Below, piece after piece: positions 24,163 to 31,134 of a stretch of DNA of 64,000 nucleotides; positions within the stretch are counted from its first letter, which is position 1, and every line of letters begins with the position of its first letter. The notes below the pieces were generated by a model. It was not told the DNA's origin. It did no database searches and saw only the letters and a list, made by a program, of their open reading frames with translations. Where the stretch lies: the NCBI GenBank assembly GCA_000004985.1, contig GG738890.1; one strand, 5' to 3'. This stretch comes from Naegleria gruberi (taxonomy: Eukaryota). A program made the position numbers and the translations under genes.

Positions 24163-25557
24163 TTATATACTTGTCTGGTTTTGAATATGAACATCTTCCA
24201 GGTCGATCATCTTGCCATTTCCTCTGGATTCTAAATAGTGGATGTGAGTTTCTGCTAATGTTTCGGTTAAATCATTTGCTAATTGTTGGAAAAGAGTTGG
24301 AGGGAGAAGATCAATTTCTTCAAATACATCTTCTCTATTATTGTAATTATCAATGATTCCTGAATCCACACTTGAAATTTCATAAGTATCCATTATTTCA
24401 ATTACAGTTTCGTATTTCAATCTTTCTAAATAACTAATTGCTTTTTCAATTTCATTATATGCTTTGGTAATTGATGTTTCATTTGGTCCAACCTCTTGCT
24501 TATCAAACAATTGATGTGCTATTTCGAATAGTTTCATCTGCATGTTCAAAGATTCATTGGAATAATCCTTGTAAAACTGAATTTTTTCCAAAAGTAGGAA
24601 TTCATTCAATAAATTACTATTTTGACATGAAAATTTGAATTTCATTCTAGAAAAATCATCACTCATAGTGTCCTTCATCAGAGAATTATTGGCATTGTGA
24701 AAATGAATCTTATTTCGTTTCTCATTTCGAATAGCAAAAACAAAGAGCAGAATTATTGTTGGAATTAACACGACAACACTCAAACAAATCAATGAAATGG
24801 ATACAATCAACGAATCCTTTCTCAAATAATCTGCTCTAGTTGAGATTAAACTTGCCGAATCCAAAAAATCAAACAACAACGCTTGAAATTCATTGAAATC
24901 TGTTGCATATCCAGGAGAATACAATTCATCTCTTGCTTCCTGTTGGAGAGTTTCGTTAAGATAAACATAAAGTGTTCCATTCACCGTAATAAATGAACAG
25001 GTTTTTTCAATCATGTGATCCCAATGTTTTTCAAATATTGGAAAGGTTTCTAATTTCCTTTCCAAAAATGGATGAGTGTATCCAACAGGAAACAGTTTGG
25101 CCATTTCAGCTATTGAACTATTCAAATAATTTCTATAGGGCAGATAATAGTAATAACCAGTTTGAATCGAATAGCCACCTCGATTTTCAATAGCCAACCG
25201 AATTAAATCTCTCAACACAACATAAACAGCATACAAATCAGTTCTCTTCCCCATCAAGTCAACCGAAGGAATTTCCTGAGCAAACTGATTAGGAATTGTA
25301 ATTAAACATATAATTGCAATTAAGATTGCAAAACTGAACAAAATAACCAAAATATTGCAAAAAGTAATAAAATTTTGACCTTTCTGTTCTCTGATTCGTT
25401 TCTTCTTCTTGTCGTCGTGAGAATTTGGTGCAGTTTCAATGTGTTTGATTGTGATGGATGGTTTGAAATCATTGTCATCATCATCTGCCTGCGCACTCAA
25501 GATATCATCGAGACCGAAAGTATCAGTGTTGTTGGGAGAGGTCAAGTCACTTTCCAT
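24163..25557 (-). CDS. Two-TM RGS-domain protein (TM1, ectodomain, TM2, RGS), paralog 2
   Basis: TM segments FITFCNILVILFSFAILIAIICLI and LIVSISLICLSVVVLIPTIILLFVFAI. RGS: FSRMKFKFSCQNSNLLNEFLLLEKIQFYKDYS...LFEIAHQLF. Confidence 0.7.
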   Translation of the reverse strand: MESDLTSPNNTDTFGLDDILSAQADDDDNDFKPSITIKHIETAPNSHDDKKKKRIREQKGQNFITFCNILVILFSFAILIAIICLITIPNQFAQEIPSVDLMGKRTDLYAVYVVLRDLIRLAIENRGGYSIQTGYYYYLPYRNYLNSSIAEMAKLFPVGYTHPFLERKLETFPIFEKHWDHMIEKTCSFITVNGTLYVYLNETLQQEARDELYSPGYATDFNEFQALLFDFLDSASLISTRADYLRKDSLIVSISLICLSVVVLIPTIILLFVFAIRNEKRNKIHFHNANNSLMKDTMSDDFSRMKFKFSCQNSNLLNEFLLLEKIQFYKDYSNESLNMQMKLFEIAHQLFDKQEVGPNETSITKAYNEIEKAISYLERLKYETVIEIMDTYEISSVDSGIIDNYNNREDVFEEIDLLPPTLFQQLANDLTETLAETHIHYLESRGNGKMIDLEDVHIQNQTSI

Positions 25558-25894: not shown

Positions 25895-27274
25895 ATGGAC
25901 ATTGTCTCGCAATACAAGCAGAAAACTACTGCTTCCATCAAATCGAAAAAGACACAAACATTATCTCAATATTCGAAACGTTCATTTATGCATGTCGAAT
26001 GTTGTGGAAAGATGGTCTTTAATTGTACAAGAATAATGTCTGTTCTTGCACTGATACTATTAATTATTGCATTTATTGTTGTAATTATTTACTCAATTAT
26101 GACGTATGCAGTTGTCAAGTGGCCTTTATCGACGGCTCTTATTGAAATTGGAAATTGTTATCATTATTACAATGAAATGATAATGACAGAGTATATTACA
26201 GTGTTTTCAATGAATGGAACTTATGCGAAAGAATACGAAACTGCAAAGAACTCACTCATTACTTCTCTCAATGTTGTCTTCTCTATTATTTCAAGTGCCA
26301 AGTTGACCAATTTGACCAATGCCAACGATATTCCAATATTCAAATTACAACAAGGTGTAGTCGATGCAATAGTTGCGAAAGATTATACCACTGCCAATGA
26401 ACTATTCAATCAACCAGAACATTTAGAAGGGATGGACACATTCCTGAGCTCATATGTTAATTTTTTGCAAGATATTAAGAATATTAGTGCAAATCAGGAT
26501 CAGACGATTCAAAGTTCAACCTCCACACAGATTATTGTGATTGCTGTTTGTCTTGCATTGACCTTACCGATTGTGTTATTCATTATTATCACATCAATCA
26601 GATCTCAACAGCTGTCCGCAAGAAAACTCAAAAATACTAGATCAATAATGGTGCTCAAAACCATGACAGATCCAGTTTTGAGATCTCTTTTCAATGAATT
26701 CTGCGTTGGTGAGACTGAACATCATTGTTTTGAATTTTTGGAAAGTGTTCAACTATTTAAGGAAAAGAAGGGAACCTATCAATCGACCATTCGTCAAATC
26801 ATGAAACAAGTTAAGGAGGGAAATTTCATAGATGATGATACCAGCTCTTCAGATACCAATACAGCAGTCACCACACGAACAGATTCCACAGAATTTGGTT
26901 CTATAGTTTCACTCAATGATCAGGAGCAAGCACTTCAAATCTATGAGCGATTCTTAGCTCCAAACAGTTCCAAACGAATCCATTTCAAAGGTTATTCGGG
27001 AATTCTATCTGTAATTCAATCAAAAGAATTAGCTGCTGATTTACAACATGTATTTGTGGATGCTCAGAAATTTGCAAGTGAACATCTCATTCCAGCTCAC
27101 AATTCCTTCTTGGGGAGTTTCACCAACATTACCTCTCATAAAATTGAAATGATGAATGAATTTAGAAAGAAATGGTTACATTTCAAATCCACTGAAACTT
27201 CCAAAAAGAGAAAAGATCCAACCAAATTCCAGCAACAATCTTCTGGTCAAACTGATTCAAAATTGATTCAATAA
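25895..27274 (+). CDS. Two-TM RGS-domain protein, paralog 3, head-to-head with 24163..25557
   Basis: TM segments MSVLALILLIIAFIVVIIYSI and IIVIAVCLALTLPIVLFIIITSI. RGS: LRSLFNEFCVGETEHHCFEFLESVQLFKEK...IYERFL. Confidence 0.7.
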   Translation: MDIVSQYKQKTTASIKSKKTQTLSQYSKRSFMHVECCGKMVFNCTRIMSVLALILLIIAFIVVIIYSIMTYAVVKWPLSTALIEIGNCYHYYNEMIMTEYITVFSMNGTYAKEYETAKNSLITSLNVVFSIISSAKLTNLTNANDIPIFKLQQGVVDAIVAKDYTTANELFNQPEHLEGMDTFLSSYVNFLQDIKNISANQDQTIQSSTSTQIIVIAVCLALTLPIVLFIIITSIRSQQLSARKLKNTRSIMVLKTMTDPVLRSLFNEFCVGETEHHCFEFLESVQLFKEKKGTYQSTIRQIMKQVKEGNFIDDDTSSSDTNTAVTTRTDSTEFGSIVSLNDQEQALQIYERFLAPNSSKRIHFKGYSGILSVIQSKELAADLQHVFVDAQKFASEHLIPAHNSFLGSFTNITSHKIEMMNEFRKKWLHFKSTETSKKRKDPTKFQQQSSGQTDSKLIQ

Positions 27275-27945: not shown

Positions 27946-28513
27946 AATACTCTTTTCAGATCATATATCAAAATTGAATAAATAATGAAATTGGCGGGAA
28001 TGATGAACTTTAAAAAACAAAAAAAAAATAAAGGTATTATCTATTGTTTGGAGTGACCAATTAAGGGAGGATACGGTTTCTTTTACAGTATTCCAGAAAG
28101 GATCGTTAAGTTGGTGATTCCATGCTGCTAACGCAATATTGCTTGTGATGGTGGATGTAGAGTTGAACATTCTTAAAGCGGTGCACACTGGTTCAATCGT
28201 GTAGAGATAAGAGGGCATGGTGAGTCCTAATCCACCTTCAGCTTTGGAGCCGTAAATGACTGTTTTAGAGGTCATGTTGTCTAAGCCAACTGAGGTTCTA
28301 AGGTGTGTTCTGCGACTAGGACGTCCAGGTGTTGAAGGTCTTTCAGGTTGGCACCACCAAACAAGAATATTTTGGAAGTGACACTATTTTGGACATTGTG
28401 GTTGTGATAATGGTGTTCAGTTTGAGGTTTTTAGATTTCTTATTCGCCAAGCGTTCTTCAGCTTTAGGAGTTCATCTGATGTCCAGGCCCTTTACGATAA
28501 AAAACAAAAAAAA

Positions 28514-29397
28514 ATGGCAACAAAGGAACAAGTTCATGGGTGCATTATAAAGGGAGATGTTGAAGGTTTACGTAATTTGGGTGATTTATCAGCTGTGATT
28601 AACGAGACCATTCCGACAACATGTCCCGAAGGTGCTTATTCCTTGTTGTTTTCTGCTGCTGGATTTGATAATTTGGAAATTGTCAAAATATTGTTGGATA
28701 CACAAGGTATTGTTGTTGATCAAGGAGTAGGTTTGATTGTTTTTTGTAATTTTTGTGGATTTGAATTTGTTTTTAGCAAGTAAGTTTGATGGAAAATTGA
28801 AATTATTAAAGATCTATTGTAAAGTGGGTATGTTGAGTTGGATTGAAATATTAATGATTTGTGTTATAGTTTGTAAGTTGTTGTTGATTTCTTTGAATTT
28901 TGATTGGAACGTTTCAAGTCTGTAAGTTTTTGGGTTGAAGATTTGTTTCTAATGATTTTAGTTTGTAAGTTTCAGAAATTATGAGATGGTTTATTAATTT
29001 TAATAGGGAAATGTAAGTACTGCTCAATTATTTCATAATTTTAACTAATTTAATTTAGGAAGTAAGTTTAATTTGAAAATAATCGTGAAATAGTTACTTT
29101 GTTTAGGATGTAAGTTGACAAGCTCACTAAATTCTCATTCAGATTTGTTACAAGTTTGTAAGTAATCGCAATGCAATTACCTTCTTAAACTCAAATCAAA
29201 CAGTATGAGGTGAGTATTTATTGAGCATAAATATAGAACATGATAAGTCTCCTCTCTATAATTCATTGAGAAGAAAAAACTTTGCACTTGCTAAACTTTT
29301 ACTTCGTGCTGGAGCTACAATTGATTCCAGTGTCAGATCCTTTATAGATATTGATATTGATAAATTGAATGAGGAAGCTTTGGCAGAATCTAACTAG
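28514..29397 (+). CDS. Small ankyrin-repeat protein, 2 exons (28514..28726 and 29248..29397) separated by a 521-nt intron
   Basis: Exon 1 ends ...GIVVDQG before GTAGGT. Exon 2 begins SPLYNSLRRKNFALAKLLLRAGATID, and the junction restores the ANK consensus (G-SPL...A..LL..GA). Both exons are phase 0. Confidence 0.45.
28780..29247 (+). repeat. Tandem array of about ten ~48-nt units, each beginning GTAAGT (one GTGAGT) and ending AG, inside the ankyrin-gene intron
   Basis: GTAAGT at 28780, 28873, 28922, 28965, 29013, 29062, 29110, 29158 and GTGAGT at 29210. Spacing is 43-53 nt. Each unit ends in tag/cag/aag followed by 3-6 nt before the next GTAAGT. Confidence 0.7.
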
Positions 29398-29451
29398 TTG
29401 TCATTCATTACCTAGTTTGTCTAGATTTGAATAATGCTCAATAAAGTTTAT

Positions 29452-31134
29452 TTAGTTTCTCTTTTCATAATCAAATATGTATGGTTCAAGAACGGTTCTT
29501 GTAACAATGTATGTTTCCTTGATCTTAGCTTGTTGTTCCTTTAAATGTTCTGGAACCTTAATTCTATATTGTTTCAACAAATAGACAAGGATTAATTTGA
29601 TTTCCAATAAAGCCATTCTACGTCCCAAACAATCTCTTGGTCCAATCGAGAATGTGATCAACTCGTCTTTTTGGAAATCCATCGATAAATTACCCATAGT
29701 TCCCTTATCCATCTTATCTTCCTCTGTTTCAATCTTTTCTGGATTGAAGAAACGATCGAATTTGAAATCATCCATAGCATTATTATGAGAAAGCTTATGT
29801 TGTGCATATAATCCCACATTAACAACAGTTCCTTCCTCAAAGAATTGTCCACCAACTGTTTCACCTCCCTTCTTGGTAATGACTCTTGTGGCACCACCAA
29901 CTGGAATCTTGACACGGAATGCTTCCTTCATGAATGAGGTCAAGTATGGAAGCTTTTCAGTGATATCTTCAAATTTAATAGAGTCAAGTGATGGAATATC
30001 TCTATCAATTTCCTCAATTAACTTTTCTTGAATTTCTGGATTTGTGGCCAACAATCTCAACATGAAATTCAAGGATGTTGAACTAGTTTCAAATCCAGCA
30101 AAGAAGATAATGAAAATGGCACTGACTAATTCATCATTGGACAAACGTTCCTCCTCTGACAATTTCAAAGTATTGGCACTCTTCAATAATAAACTCAATA
30201 AATCTTCATCATCTTTAACTTGATGATCGAGTTCAGCTTCCTTAGTCTTTTTGAGAACCATTGTCATGGCAGTATCTCTGAATCTATTTTTGGCATCTTT
30301 AAATCTTTTGAAAATACCAAATGGAACAATTTCGAATAGATATTCAGGGAAGACGAATTTGTACATTAATCCAGTTAGTAAATCAGAAATCCAACCATGG
30401 ACTTCATCTCTGTGTTCTGGAGTCTTGTCAAAAATTTCAATATCATAATCAAAAGCAACTCTGTTAATGACAGTTAAAGTGACTGATTTCAATTCTTGAG
30501 TTGTGTTAACATTTCTAATATTTCCATTCTTGTCTGCATCATAATATTTAGTCCAAAATTGAATCATTTTTGGCAATTCTTCCATTGTAACTCTGAAAAC
30601 ATTTCTCAAATGTGAAACATTACTAAAGATTGGATTAGACAATGTTCTATGCTTTTTCCAAAGTGGATTATTCGAATCTGCAGAGAATACATTAGGTCCA
30701 AACAATCCAACAGGTGCCAAGAATTCACCCTTTCCAACAGTTCTATACTTTCTAATAAGAACTTCCTTGATCATTTCCTTATCCTTTGCAATGGTGAAAT
30801 AAACATCTGGTCCTTGTTGAATTTTAATCATTGCCTCATTTGGATATTTCTGAAATGCCTTCATTCCACACAAATAACCATGAAAGACGAACATTTCTCC
30901 ATCAATGAGTGAATCAATAAACGAAGGAAAGAATGAAACATATCCAGGAATGTGTCGATACTTGAAATAAGTTCTCAAGAATCGGAGAATATAGGTAATC
31001 AAATAAATAATCAATAAACATGACGAGATGGAAATCAATTGCAAAAATCCAAACCCATTTTCATCACCAAACAATGCACGAATTAGAAATGATCCTCCAC
31101 CATCATCAGATGCAACAATATTTGAAGTAGTCAT
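29452..31134 (-). CDS. Cytochrome P450 monooxygenase
   Basis: Heme-binding loop FSIGPRDCLGRRMAL (FxxGxRxCxG), I-helix AGFETSS, EXXR motif, N-terminal membrane anchor. Confidence 0.85.
   Translation of the reverse strand: MTTSNIVASDDGGGSFLIRALFGDENGFGFLQLISISSCLLIIYLITYILRFLRTYFKYRHIPGYVSFFPSFIDSLIDGEMFVFHGYLCGMKAFQKYPNEAMIKIQQGPDVYFTIAKDKEMIKEVLIRKYRTVGKGEFLAPVGLFGPNVFSADSNNPLWKKHRTLSNPIFSNVSHLRNVFRVTMEELPKMIQFWTKYYDADKNGNIRNVNTTQELKSVTLTVINRVAFDYDIEIFDKTPEHRDEVHGWISDLLTGLMYKFVFPEYLFEIVPFGIFKRFKDAKNRFRDTAMTMVLKKTKEAELDHQVKDDEDLLSLLLKSANTLKLSEEERLSNDELVSAIFIIFFAGFETSSTSLNFMLRLLATNPEIQEKLIEEIDRDIPSLDSIKFEDITEKLPYLTSFMKEAFRVKIPVGGATRVITKKGGETVGGQFFEEGTVVNVGLYAQHKLSHNNAMDDFKFDRFFNPEKIETEEDKMDKGTMGNLSMDFQKDELITFSIGPRDCLGRRMALLEIKLILVYLLKQYRIKVPEHLKEQQAKIKETYIVTRTVLEPYIFDYEKRN

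Follow-up and report, generated by a model that had tools for sequence, protein, structure and literature searches.

Eleven tandem minimal intron-like units separated by single codons in an ankyrin gene of Naegleria gruberi

In a 64,000-nucleotide (nt) stretch of the genome of the heterolobosean Naegleria gruberi (GenBank assembly GCA_000004985.1, contig GG738890.1; hereafter the window), the two exons of a small ankyrin gene, NAEGRDRAFT_71393, are separated by 521 bp (positions 28727-29247, + strand) that consist of eleven head-to-tail units, each 38-50 nt long and each delimited like an intron. What this array repeats is punctuation, that is splice signals, unit size and reading frame, and not sequence. 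It is built of what look like ordinary GT-AG introns and micro-exons in a tandem architecture for which we found no earlier description, and the pattern at the DNA level is statistically secure. On balance, the sequence leads us to favour the view that an "intron plus one codon" unit was amplified long ago to form the array and that the array is removed unit by unit, which would lengthen an ankyrin loop by up to 12 residues.

The array (Table 1) had come to attention through an original prediction that described mini-intron-like units of ~48 nt at exactly these coordinates, and the positions of the donors and AG dinucleotides confirm it, as they do its counts of eight GTAAGT donors and one GTGAGT donor. 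Its estimate of about ten units has to be raised to eleven, the unit at 28828 with its GTATGT donor having been overlooked; GTAGGT opens the first unit. Successive donors lie 53, 48, 45, 49, 43, 48, 49, 48, 48 and 52 nt apart (median 48). All eleven units end in AG (six TAG, four AAG and one CAG), so that the YAG previously given for the unit ends describes seven of them and fails for the four in AAG. The distance of 3-6 nt between units was correctly seen and can be put more exactly, since each of the ten separators measures either 3 nt (eight) or 6 nt (two); all are in phase 0 and none contains a stop codon.

Table 1. Exons, intron-like units and separators of the ankyrin gene, and other introns of the window
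Feature	Position	Strand	Length	Sequence	Remarks
Exon 1	28514..28726	+	71 codons		open reading frame and translation; ends in phase 0; Pfam Ank_3 at residues 42-66
Unit 1	28727..28776	+	50 nt	GTAGGT...TAG	identical in second strain
Separator/putative micro-exon 1	28777..28779	+	3 nt	CAA (Q)	
Unit 2	28780..28824	+	45 nt	GTAAGT...AAG	second strain identical to its contig end (28826)
Separator/putative micro-exon 2	28825..28827	+	3 nt	TGG (W)	
Unit 3	28828..28869	+	42 nt	GTATGT...TAG	
Separator/putative micro-exon 3	28870..28872	+	3 nt	TTT (F)	
Unit 4	28873..28918	+	46 nt	GTAAGT...AAG	
Separator/putative micro-exon 4	28919..28921	+	3 nt	TCT (S)	
Unit 5	28922..28961	+	40 nt	GTAAGT...TAG	
Separator/putative micro-exon 5	28962..28964	+	3 nt	TTT (F)	
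Unit 6	28965..29006	+	42 nt	GTAAGT...TAG	
Separator/putative micro-exon 6	29007..29012	+	6 nt	GGAAAT (GN)	exon in JGI model too
Unit 7	29013..29058	+	46 nt	GTAAGT...TAG	intron in JGI model
Separator/putative micro-exon 7	29059..29061	+	3 nt	GAA (E)	in JGI model
Unit 8	29062..29106	+	45 nt	GTAAGT...TAG	in JGI model
Separator/putative micro-exon 8	29107..29109	+	3 nt	GAT (D)	in JGI model
Unit 9	29110..29154	+	45 nt	GTAAGT...AAG	
Separator/putative micro-exon 9	29155..29157	+	3 nt	TTT (F)	
Unit 10	29158..29203	+	46 nt	GTAAGT...CAG	alternative AG ending 29209 abuts next donor
Separator/putative micro-exon 10	29204..29209	+	6 nt	TATGAG (YE)	zero-length if AG at 29209 is used
Unit 11	29210..29247	+	38 nt	GTGAGT...AAG	
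Exon 2	29248..29397	+	49 codons and TAG		last ANK repeat; no Met
Papain-family cysteine protease intron	54638-54540	-	99 nt	GTAAGT...TAG	donor GTAAGTT
Papain-family cysteine protease intron	54169-54121	-	49 nt	GTGAGT...TAG	donor GTGAGTT
Candidate intron	14243-14200	-	44 nt	...AAG	not confirmed by homology

The host gene, whose product is deposited as a "predicted protein" (XP_002673463.1), begins with the ATG at 28514 and encodes three ankyrin repeats. The original prediction had assigned it to a dictyostelid, which has to be corrected to N. gruberi; the GC content of the window, 33%, is the value published for this genome (PMC8296547). In Pfam, exon 1 matches Ank_3 with 24.7 bits against a cutoff of 22.3. 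A plain join of the two exons matches Ank_2 across the junction with 24.5 bits, below the cutoff of 27.3, at an E-value of 4e-5. With ANK profile matches in both exons, the gene encodes an ankyrin-repeat protein, and in an exhaustive phmmer search both of its halves match generic ankyrin proteins. Exon 2 has no methionine codon and is preceded by an in-frame TGA (29206-29208); it can therefore be expressed only by in-frame splicing to exon 1, which bears out the earlier proposal of two ankyrin-coding exons joined in frame. An AATAAA lies at 29440.

The regularity of the array is not a product of chance. Eight of the 16 GTAAGT hexamers on the + strand of the window fall within 380 nt, where local composition predicts 0.35, and on either strand the array is the sole run of at least three donor-like hexamers spaced 35-60 nt apart. 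For the acceptors and the frame, we held the donors fixed and shuffled the unit interiors. In the array an AG stands 0, 3 or 6 nt before each next donor. Under this null, an AG no more than 6 nt ahead of each following donor has a probability of ~8e-6, distances that are all multiples of three (3n) have one of ~1e-5, and the two together at every junction have one of ~1.5e-9. A chance origin of the pattern, at a probability of ~1e-9 or lower, is effectively excluded. Units 1 and 2 moreover recur without a single difference in a second strain, known from an independent Illumina metagenome assembly, and at least these two units are therefore no assembly artefact. All in all, it is exceedingly improbable that either chance or an assembly or sequencing artefact underlies the array.

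Outside these signals, the units do not resemble one another. Tandem Repeats Finder (TRF; minimum score 30) detects no tandem repeat in the array, and in pairwise alignments the unit interiors behave like shuffled sequence (z=1.0), the best pair scoring 12 against a null maximum that averages 11. Column-wise information is limited to the first seven donor positions (+1 to +7) and to the AG that stands three bases before the donor, while the spacer (micro-exon) bases, the interiors and the polypyrimidine region upstream of the AG stay at background level. The composition shifts along the array, from T/G-rich in units 1-5 to A/C-richer in units 9-10, and the array as a whole is poor in C (6.7%). 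We found no notable RNA structure in it (fold z=+1.0), and an Rfam scan gave no match. A minisatellite or other tandem repeat of sequence was considered and rejected: although the head-to-tail period is regular, the units are unlike. That the signals were kept while all else was randomized points to selection on each site, and we infer that the pattern is the footprint of purifying selection.

The units also look like introns of this particular genome. Their donors follow the GTRAGT-like consensus of the species, and the T that occupies position +7 in eight of the eleven recurs in the confirmed and candidate introns elsewhere in the window (GTAAGTT). The best of these comparisons is a papain-family cysteine protease gene, two introns of which are confirmed by homology (99 and 49 nt), as its spliced product matches Peptidase_C1 over positions 1-218 of 220 (E 5e-51). 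Since an intron of 49 nt is thus confirmed in the window, the array units would be normal short introns for the genome, those of 38 and 40 nt lying below any intron confirmed here. The AG at the end of all eleven units is likewise ordinary, and AAG, the ending of four of them, is also that of the candidate 44-nt intron.

A comparison between strains bears on whether the gene matters to the organism. The second strain is represented by a Logan contig from metagenome run ERR1078381, which opens with an Illumina adapter and covers the array only to 28826. The 213 nt of exon 1 differ from it by a single synonymous substitution and the opening 100 nt of the array do not differ at all, whereas 15 events are counted across 238 nt of the intergenic DNA upstream, some of them clustered in what is a small sample. 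The ankyrin gene thus appears to be under constraint. Retention of any single unit would introduce a stop codon or a frameshift, which would explain purifying selection on each site if the gene matters.

These observations bear on the proposal that the locus is unspliced or decaying, so that the gene would simply end at the TAA inside unit 2, giving 89 residues, or would be a pseudogene with a neutral remnant of an array. The 89-residue read-through open reading frame (ORF; 28514-28783), which metagenome gene finders call, is indeed the only form present in assemblies, and no orthologue of the gene could be detected. In a neutral remnant, however, eleven donors, eleven AGs and ten in-frame spacers would not have survived amid randomized interiors; furthermore, exon 2 is a recognizable in-frame ankyrin repeat without a start codon, and exon 1 has changed less than the DNA that flanks it. 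We therefore rate a dead or unspliced locus as highly unlikely.

The existing annotation is of little help in choosing between splicing patterns. In protein homology searches, the only specific matches are the read-through ORF of exon 1, which clusters with XP_002673463.1, and XP_002673463.1 itself, the model of the Joint Genome Institute (JGI). This model of 147 residues reads unit 1 as coding, places a 32-nt intron at 28780-28811, and includes the exons SIVKW, GN, E and D; unit 7 is treated as an intron, and long introns of 179 and 138 nt stand alongside short ones. The array has almost certainly misled the annotation here, the model apparently following an automated path that maximizes the ORF and not splicing evidence.

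On the reading that we favour, the 521 bp would comprise eleven complete minimal U2-type GT-AG introns with ten phase-0 "symmetric" micro-exons of one or two codons between them. Their origin would lie in a module of ~48 bp, a short intron with its adjacent codon, that was amplified by slippage or unequal crossing-over. As each copy would be self-sufficient for its own excision, an added copy would cost the mRNA one codon, and growth of the array would be almost neutral. Thereafter the copies would have diverged to randomness, except for donor positions +1 to +7, the AG, a unit length above the minimum and spacers of 3n. Tandem duplication can create introns, with the signals kept afterwards and the rest free to change (PMC2891723). 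Eleven independent insertions within 36 coding nt, at ~0.7 introns per gene, are not credible, which makes amplification the most parsimonious origin; as no similarity between units survives, it is an origin that we infer and do not observe. The same holds for the earlier idea of a repeatedly duplicated segment with a 5' splice site, an argument from parsimony that has left no trace detectable by TRF or by alignment of the units.

Splicing of such an array would proceed by intron definition, each donor being paired with the first branch point and AG that follow it. The units would leave in succession, in the simplest case in 5' to 3' order during transcription, and each splice would add one codon to the growing exon, placing the next donor at its new end. 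Since 3 nt leave no room for two spliceosomes to assemble, removal would have to be serial. Full inclusion of the micro-exons would give a protein of 132 residues in which QWFSFGNEDFYE extends the loop that links ankyrin repeats two and three; any subset of the micro-exons could be skipped without loss of frame, down to the plain join of 120 residues. The predicted junction of the plain join is GTTGATCAAGGA/TCTCCTCTCTAT, with GTTGATCAAGGATCTCCTCTCTAT as its diagnostic string, while GATCAAGGACAATGGTTTTCTTTTGGAAATGAAGATTTTTATGAGTCTCCTCTC would identify full inclusion and GGAAATGAAGAT, for example, a partial one; other predicted strings that contain micro-exons include GGACAATGGTTTTCT and GGAAATGAAGATTTT. 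Three independent features, the retention of every donor, of every adjacent AG and of every 3n spacer, fit excision unit by unit. Among the possibilities raised by the original prediction, the evidence in the sequence thus favours tandem introns with 3-nt micro-exons.

Several points weigh against this reading. An exact look-up in a collection of 15 billion proteins, with assemblies of public sequencing runs among its sources, finds neither the 120-residue nor the 132-residue product. With Ank_2, the score of the plain join is slightly above that of full inclusion (24.5 versus 21.5 bits), and the repeat period of the plain join, 30 residues, compares with 42 for full inclusion and 33 in the canonical repeat. 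The "textbook ANK repeat" that the outermost join was said to restore is accordingly only weakly better by score, and its period falls short of the canonical one. No branch-point signal in the units rises above the AT-rich background: strings like CTAAT, TTAAT or CTAAC can be read by eye in most units, and no column upstream of the AG exceeds that background. Had the ancestral unit possessed a 3-nt spacer from the start, the in-frame state of all ten separators would be largely inherited, and the two 6-nt spacers would be the sole independent evidence for selection on frame, at a P of roughly 0.1. Removal of the introns on both sides of a 3-nt exon is sterically demanding, and we know of no precedent for ten exons on the 3-nt scale in succession. 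Lastly, word-indexed and exhaustive phmmer searches of protein collections returned generic ankyrin matches and no orthologue or paralogue; the gene is lineage-restricted, and the array is known from one locus.

Some of these points would speak for a composite intron, in which the 521 nt are removed whole or in a few long blocks by the pairing of distant sites, in the extreme case the donor at 28727 with the acceptor at 29247, to give the plain join, the internal sites being redundant or alternative, or else transient stepwise intermediates that are re-spliced later. The plain join has the best ankyrin profile, a near-gapless Ank_2 alignment of 56 residues on 58 profile positions, and since every donor is in frame with every later acceptor, long-range pairing would be harmless. 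The JGI model, too, mixes long introns with short ones. N. gruberi genes have 1.7 exons on average and a mean intron length of 203 bp, so that long introns are evidently handled (PMC8296547). One junction (29209/29210, GAG/GTGAGT) is even a true zero-length site of the recursive type; this is also the only one of the ten junctions with an AG/GTAAGT-type juxtaposition, which tells against the recursive splicing suggested by the original prediction.

The strength of the splice sites argues the other way. The outermost sites are the weakest of the array, GTAGGT as the first donor and gatAAG as the last acceptor, compared with GTAAGT and ttTAG inside; under intron definition, internal sites stronger than the outermost pair argue against one long-range splice, in which the weakest sites would have to prevail over ten stronger and nearer partners, and no RNA structure joins the two ends (z=+1.0). 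Once ligated, a micro-exon would be taken out by no known step unless its own 5' splice site were regenerated, which is not the case with a 3-nt spacer. Above all, removal as a whole would exert no selection on internal donors, adjacent AGs and 3n spacers, yet only these are conserved. We consequently regard a composite intron, the main rival of the favoured reading, as possible but doubtful.

A further proposal sees in the array a cassette favoured in its own right and not just tolerated: micro-exons would be combined to vary the length and sequence of an ankyrin recognition loop, or eleven obligatorily sequential splicing events would act as a delay or quality gate on expression, or the array would serve as a dense binding platform for the U1 small nuclear ribonucleoprotein (snRNP). 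None of the 2^10 patterns of inclusion breaks the frame or introduces a stop codon, and the two strains agree throughout the first 100 nt of the array, a comparison that spans just those 100 nt. The insert would fall in an inter-repeat loop, and in the ANK fold this loop usually contacts partners. The micro-exon genes of schistosomes use small symmetrical exons in a like manner (PMC4350168). From unit to unit, however, the bases of the micro-exons share no information, and selected coding content is not apparent in them; no orthologue or paralogue is at hand in which conservation might show; the 64 kb contain one array, and 43 kb of DNA from Naegleria lovaniensis and Naegleria fowleri contain none; and nothing separates "selected for" from "tolerated". 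We consider a selected cassette improbable.

In the relatives N. lovaniensis and N. fowleri, the 43 kb around the cytochrome P450 loci hold no ankyrin gene (tblastn E-value 3.8) and no runs of donors; the two loci are syntenic with each other and not with that of N. gruberi. Degenerate-pattern scans for other strains in JGI metagenomes gave zero matches. The P450 gene of the window (29452-31134, - strand) lies tail to tail with the ankyrin gene, with 54 nt between the stop codons and the AATAAA at 29440 in between. Its ORF of 560 residues exceeds the NCBI model (480 residues) by 80 residues, and N. gruberi has at least three further paralogues of it, with 78%, 64% and 52% identity. Upstream of the ankyrin gene, 27961-28513 differs from the second strain by indels of 35, 12, 21, 4, 6, 4, 8 and 2 nt; as the 35-nt indel falls inside the 104-residue ORF at 27961-28275 (- strand), this ORF is probably no real gene.

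Within the window, the sole blastn match of the array is to 2026-2362 (E 3e-8). Its score of 64 compares with 54.7 +/- 5.1, and a maximum of 70, in a block-shuffled null, and we rejected a relationship, the resemblance being compositional. The match lies in a T/G-rich repeat on the + strand (2000-2560) in which TTTGTAGGTTCTATTGTTG recurs, with TRF periods of 21, 45 and 78 nt, GTAGGT at 2026, 2071, 2149, 2239, 2299 and 2526, and a second-order repeat marked by AAAACAAACCCGTTT at about 2366 and 2597. A V/I/F-rich ORF of 133 residues on the + strand of this repeat is probably no gene. Another ORF (54-962, + strand; 302 residues, ...ARPGEVARLKW...GHSLRIGAITE...) resembles by eye a tyrosine recombinase of mobile elements and has no Pfam match at E<=0.01. 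The large ORFs at 24163-25557 (- strand) and 25895-27274 (+ strand) are divergent neighbours and apparently encode membrane proteins, as does the gene around 14243 (- strand) that carries the candidate 44-nt intron. An RGS-like C-terminal region can be seen by eye in the latter gene and in 25895-27274, where Pfam supports it (RGS, 24.7 bits against a cutoff of 23.9); 24163-25557 has no Pfam RGS match.

Searches of the full-text literature, with subscription journals mostly outside their reach, returned no description of tandem mini-intron arrays or of micro-exons in Naegleria. The closest parallel for the origin of the array is the Rogers model of intron gain by tandem duplication, in which a segment of the size of the duplication, bounded by donor and acceptor, is spliced out and leaves the mRNA almost unchanged (PMC2891723). 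In the Drosophila cases ascribed to tandem duplication, too, the signals are kept while the rest drifts, and the unspliced form has a premature stop; there, however, one intron arose from duplicated exon sequence with an AG/GT proto-splice site (PMC2891723). In the array, by contrast, a whole intron with its codon seems to have been amplified about tenfold, giving eleven adjacent introns with exons of one or two codons between them and without residual similarity.

For the micro-exons, the schistosome micro-exon genes (MEGs) offer the nearest likeness, with runs of very small 3n exons that can be skipped in frame to give families of near-identical proteins (PMC4350168). The ten 3- or 6-nt separators of the array would likewise be very small symmetrical internal exons. 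The coding region of a MEG consists mostly of micro-exons (PMC4350168), compared with 36 of 399 coding nt (9%) in the ankyrin gene, and MEGs "appear to be restricted to platyhelminths" (PMC4350168). The array, unlike these, resides in the gene of an intracellular-type ankyrin protein of a heterolobosean. The exons of MEGs, as DeMarco and colleagues reportedly described in 2010, are larger and stand between ordinary, much longer introns, whereas the array has micro-exons of 3-6 nt between minimal introns of 38-50 nt.

The stepwise removal proposed here recalls recursive splicing, which also proceeds 5' to 3' with a GTAAGT at or near the new exon end. Recursive ratchet points, such as the zero-length exons of the Drosophila Ubx type and the recursive-splicing (RS) exons of vertebrates, have the form AG/GTAAGT and leave no exon behind. 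The array differs in that nine of its ten junctions retain 3 or 6 nt, which would remain part of the mRNA, and in that its segments are minimal introns, not tens of kb. With an intronic minisatellite or variable number tandem repeat, it shares the regular period (43-53 nt), the head-to-tail order and the position between exons; it lacks their similarity between units, and what repeats is the punctuation that bears function. Introners or introner-like elements and stwintrons (PMC4457414, PMC8469720) are cases in which introns are multiplied or combined, as in the array. Introner copies are dispersed and alike, whereas the array copies are adjacent and unlike, and within the window there are no copies of the introner kind; a stwintron has a splice signal that is broken up by a second intron, whereas the signals of the array are intact and its units lie side by side.

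The boldest form of the amplification view would be that a self-sufficient module has turned one intron into eleven in an otherwise intron-poor genome, that these form an obligatory sequential ratchet with up to 1,024 in-frame variants of the loop, and that the gene is a protist counterpart of the schistosome MEGs in which exons and introns have reached their physical size limit; taken as a whole, we think this unlikely. If the whole block were removed at once, the array would be a mere curiosity, although the conservation of eleven internal splice-site pairs would still need an explanation. If the units are removed singly, an intron has multiplied locally at almost no cost to the mRNA, and the array would open to inspection one concrete route by which an intron-poor eukaryote gains introns, a matter argued so far mostly from indirect evidence. 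Ten exons of 3-6 nt between introns of 38-50 nt would then force the spliceosome to work serially, which bears on intron definition, on minimal exon size and on co-transcriptional order. As standard aligners and gene finders miss exons of 3 nt, more such arrays may hide in the genomes of Naegleria and other protists.

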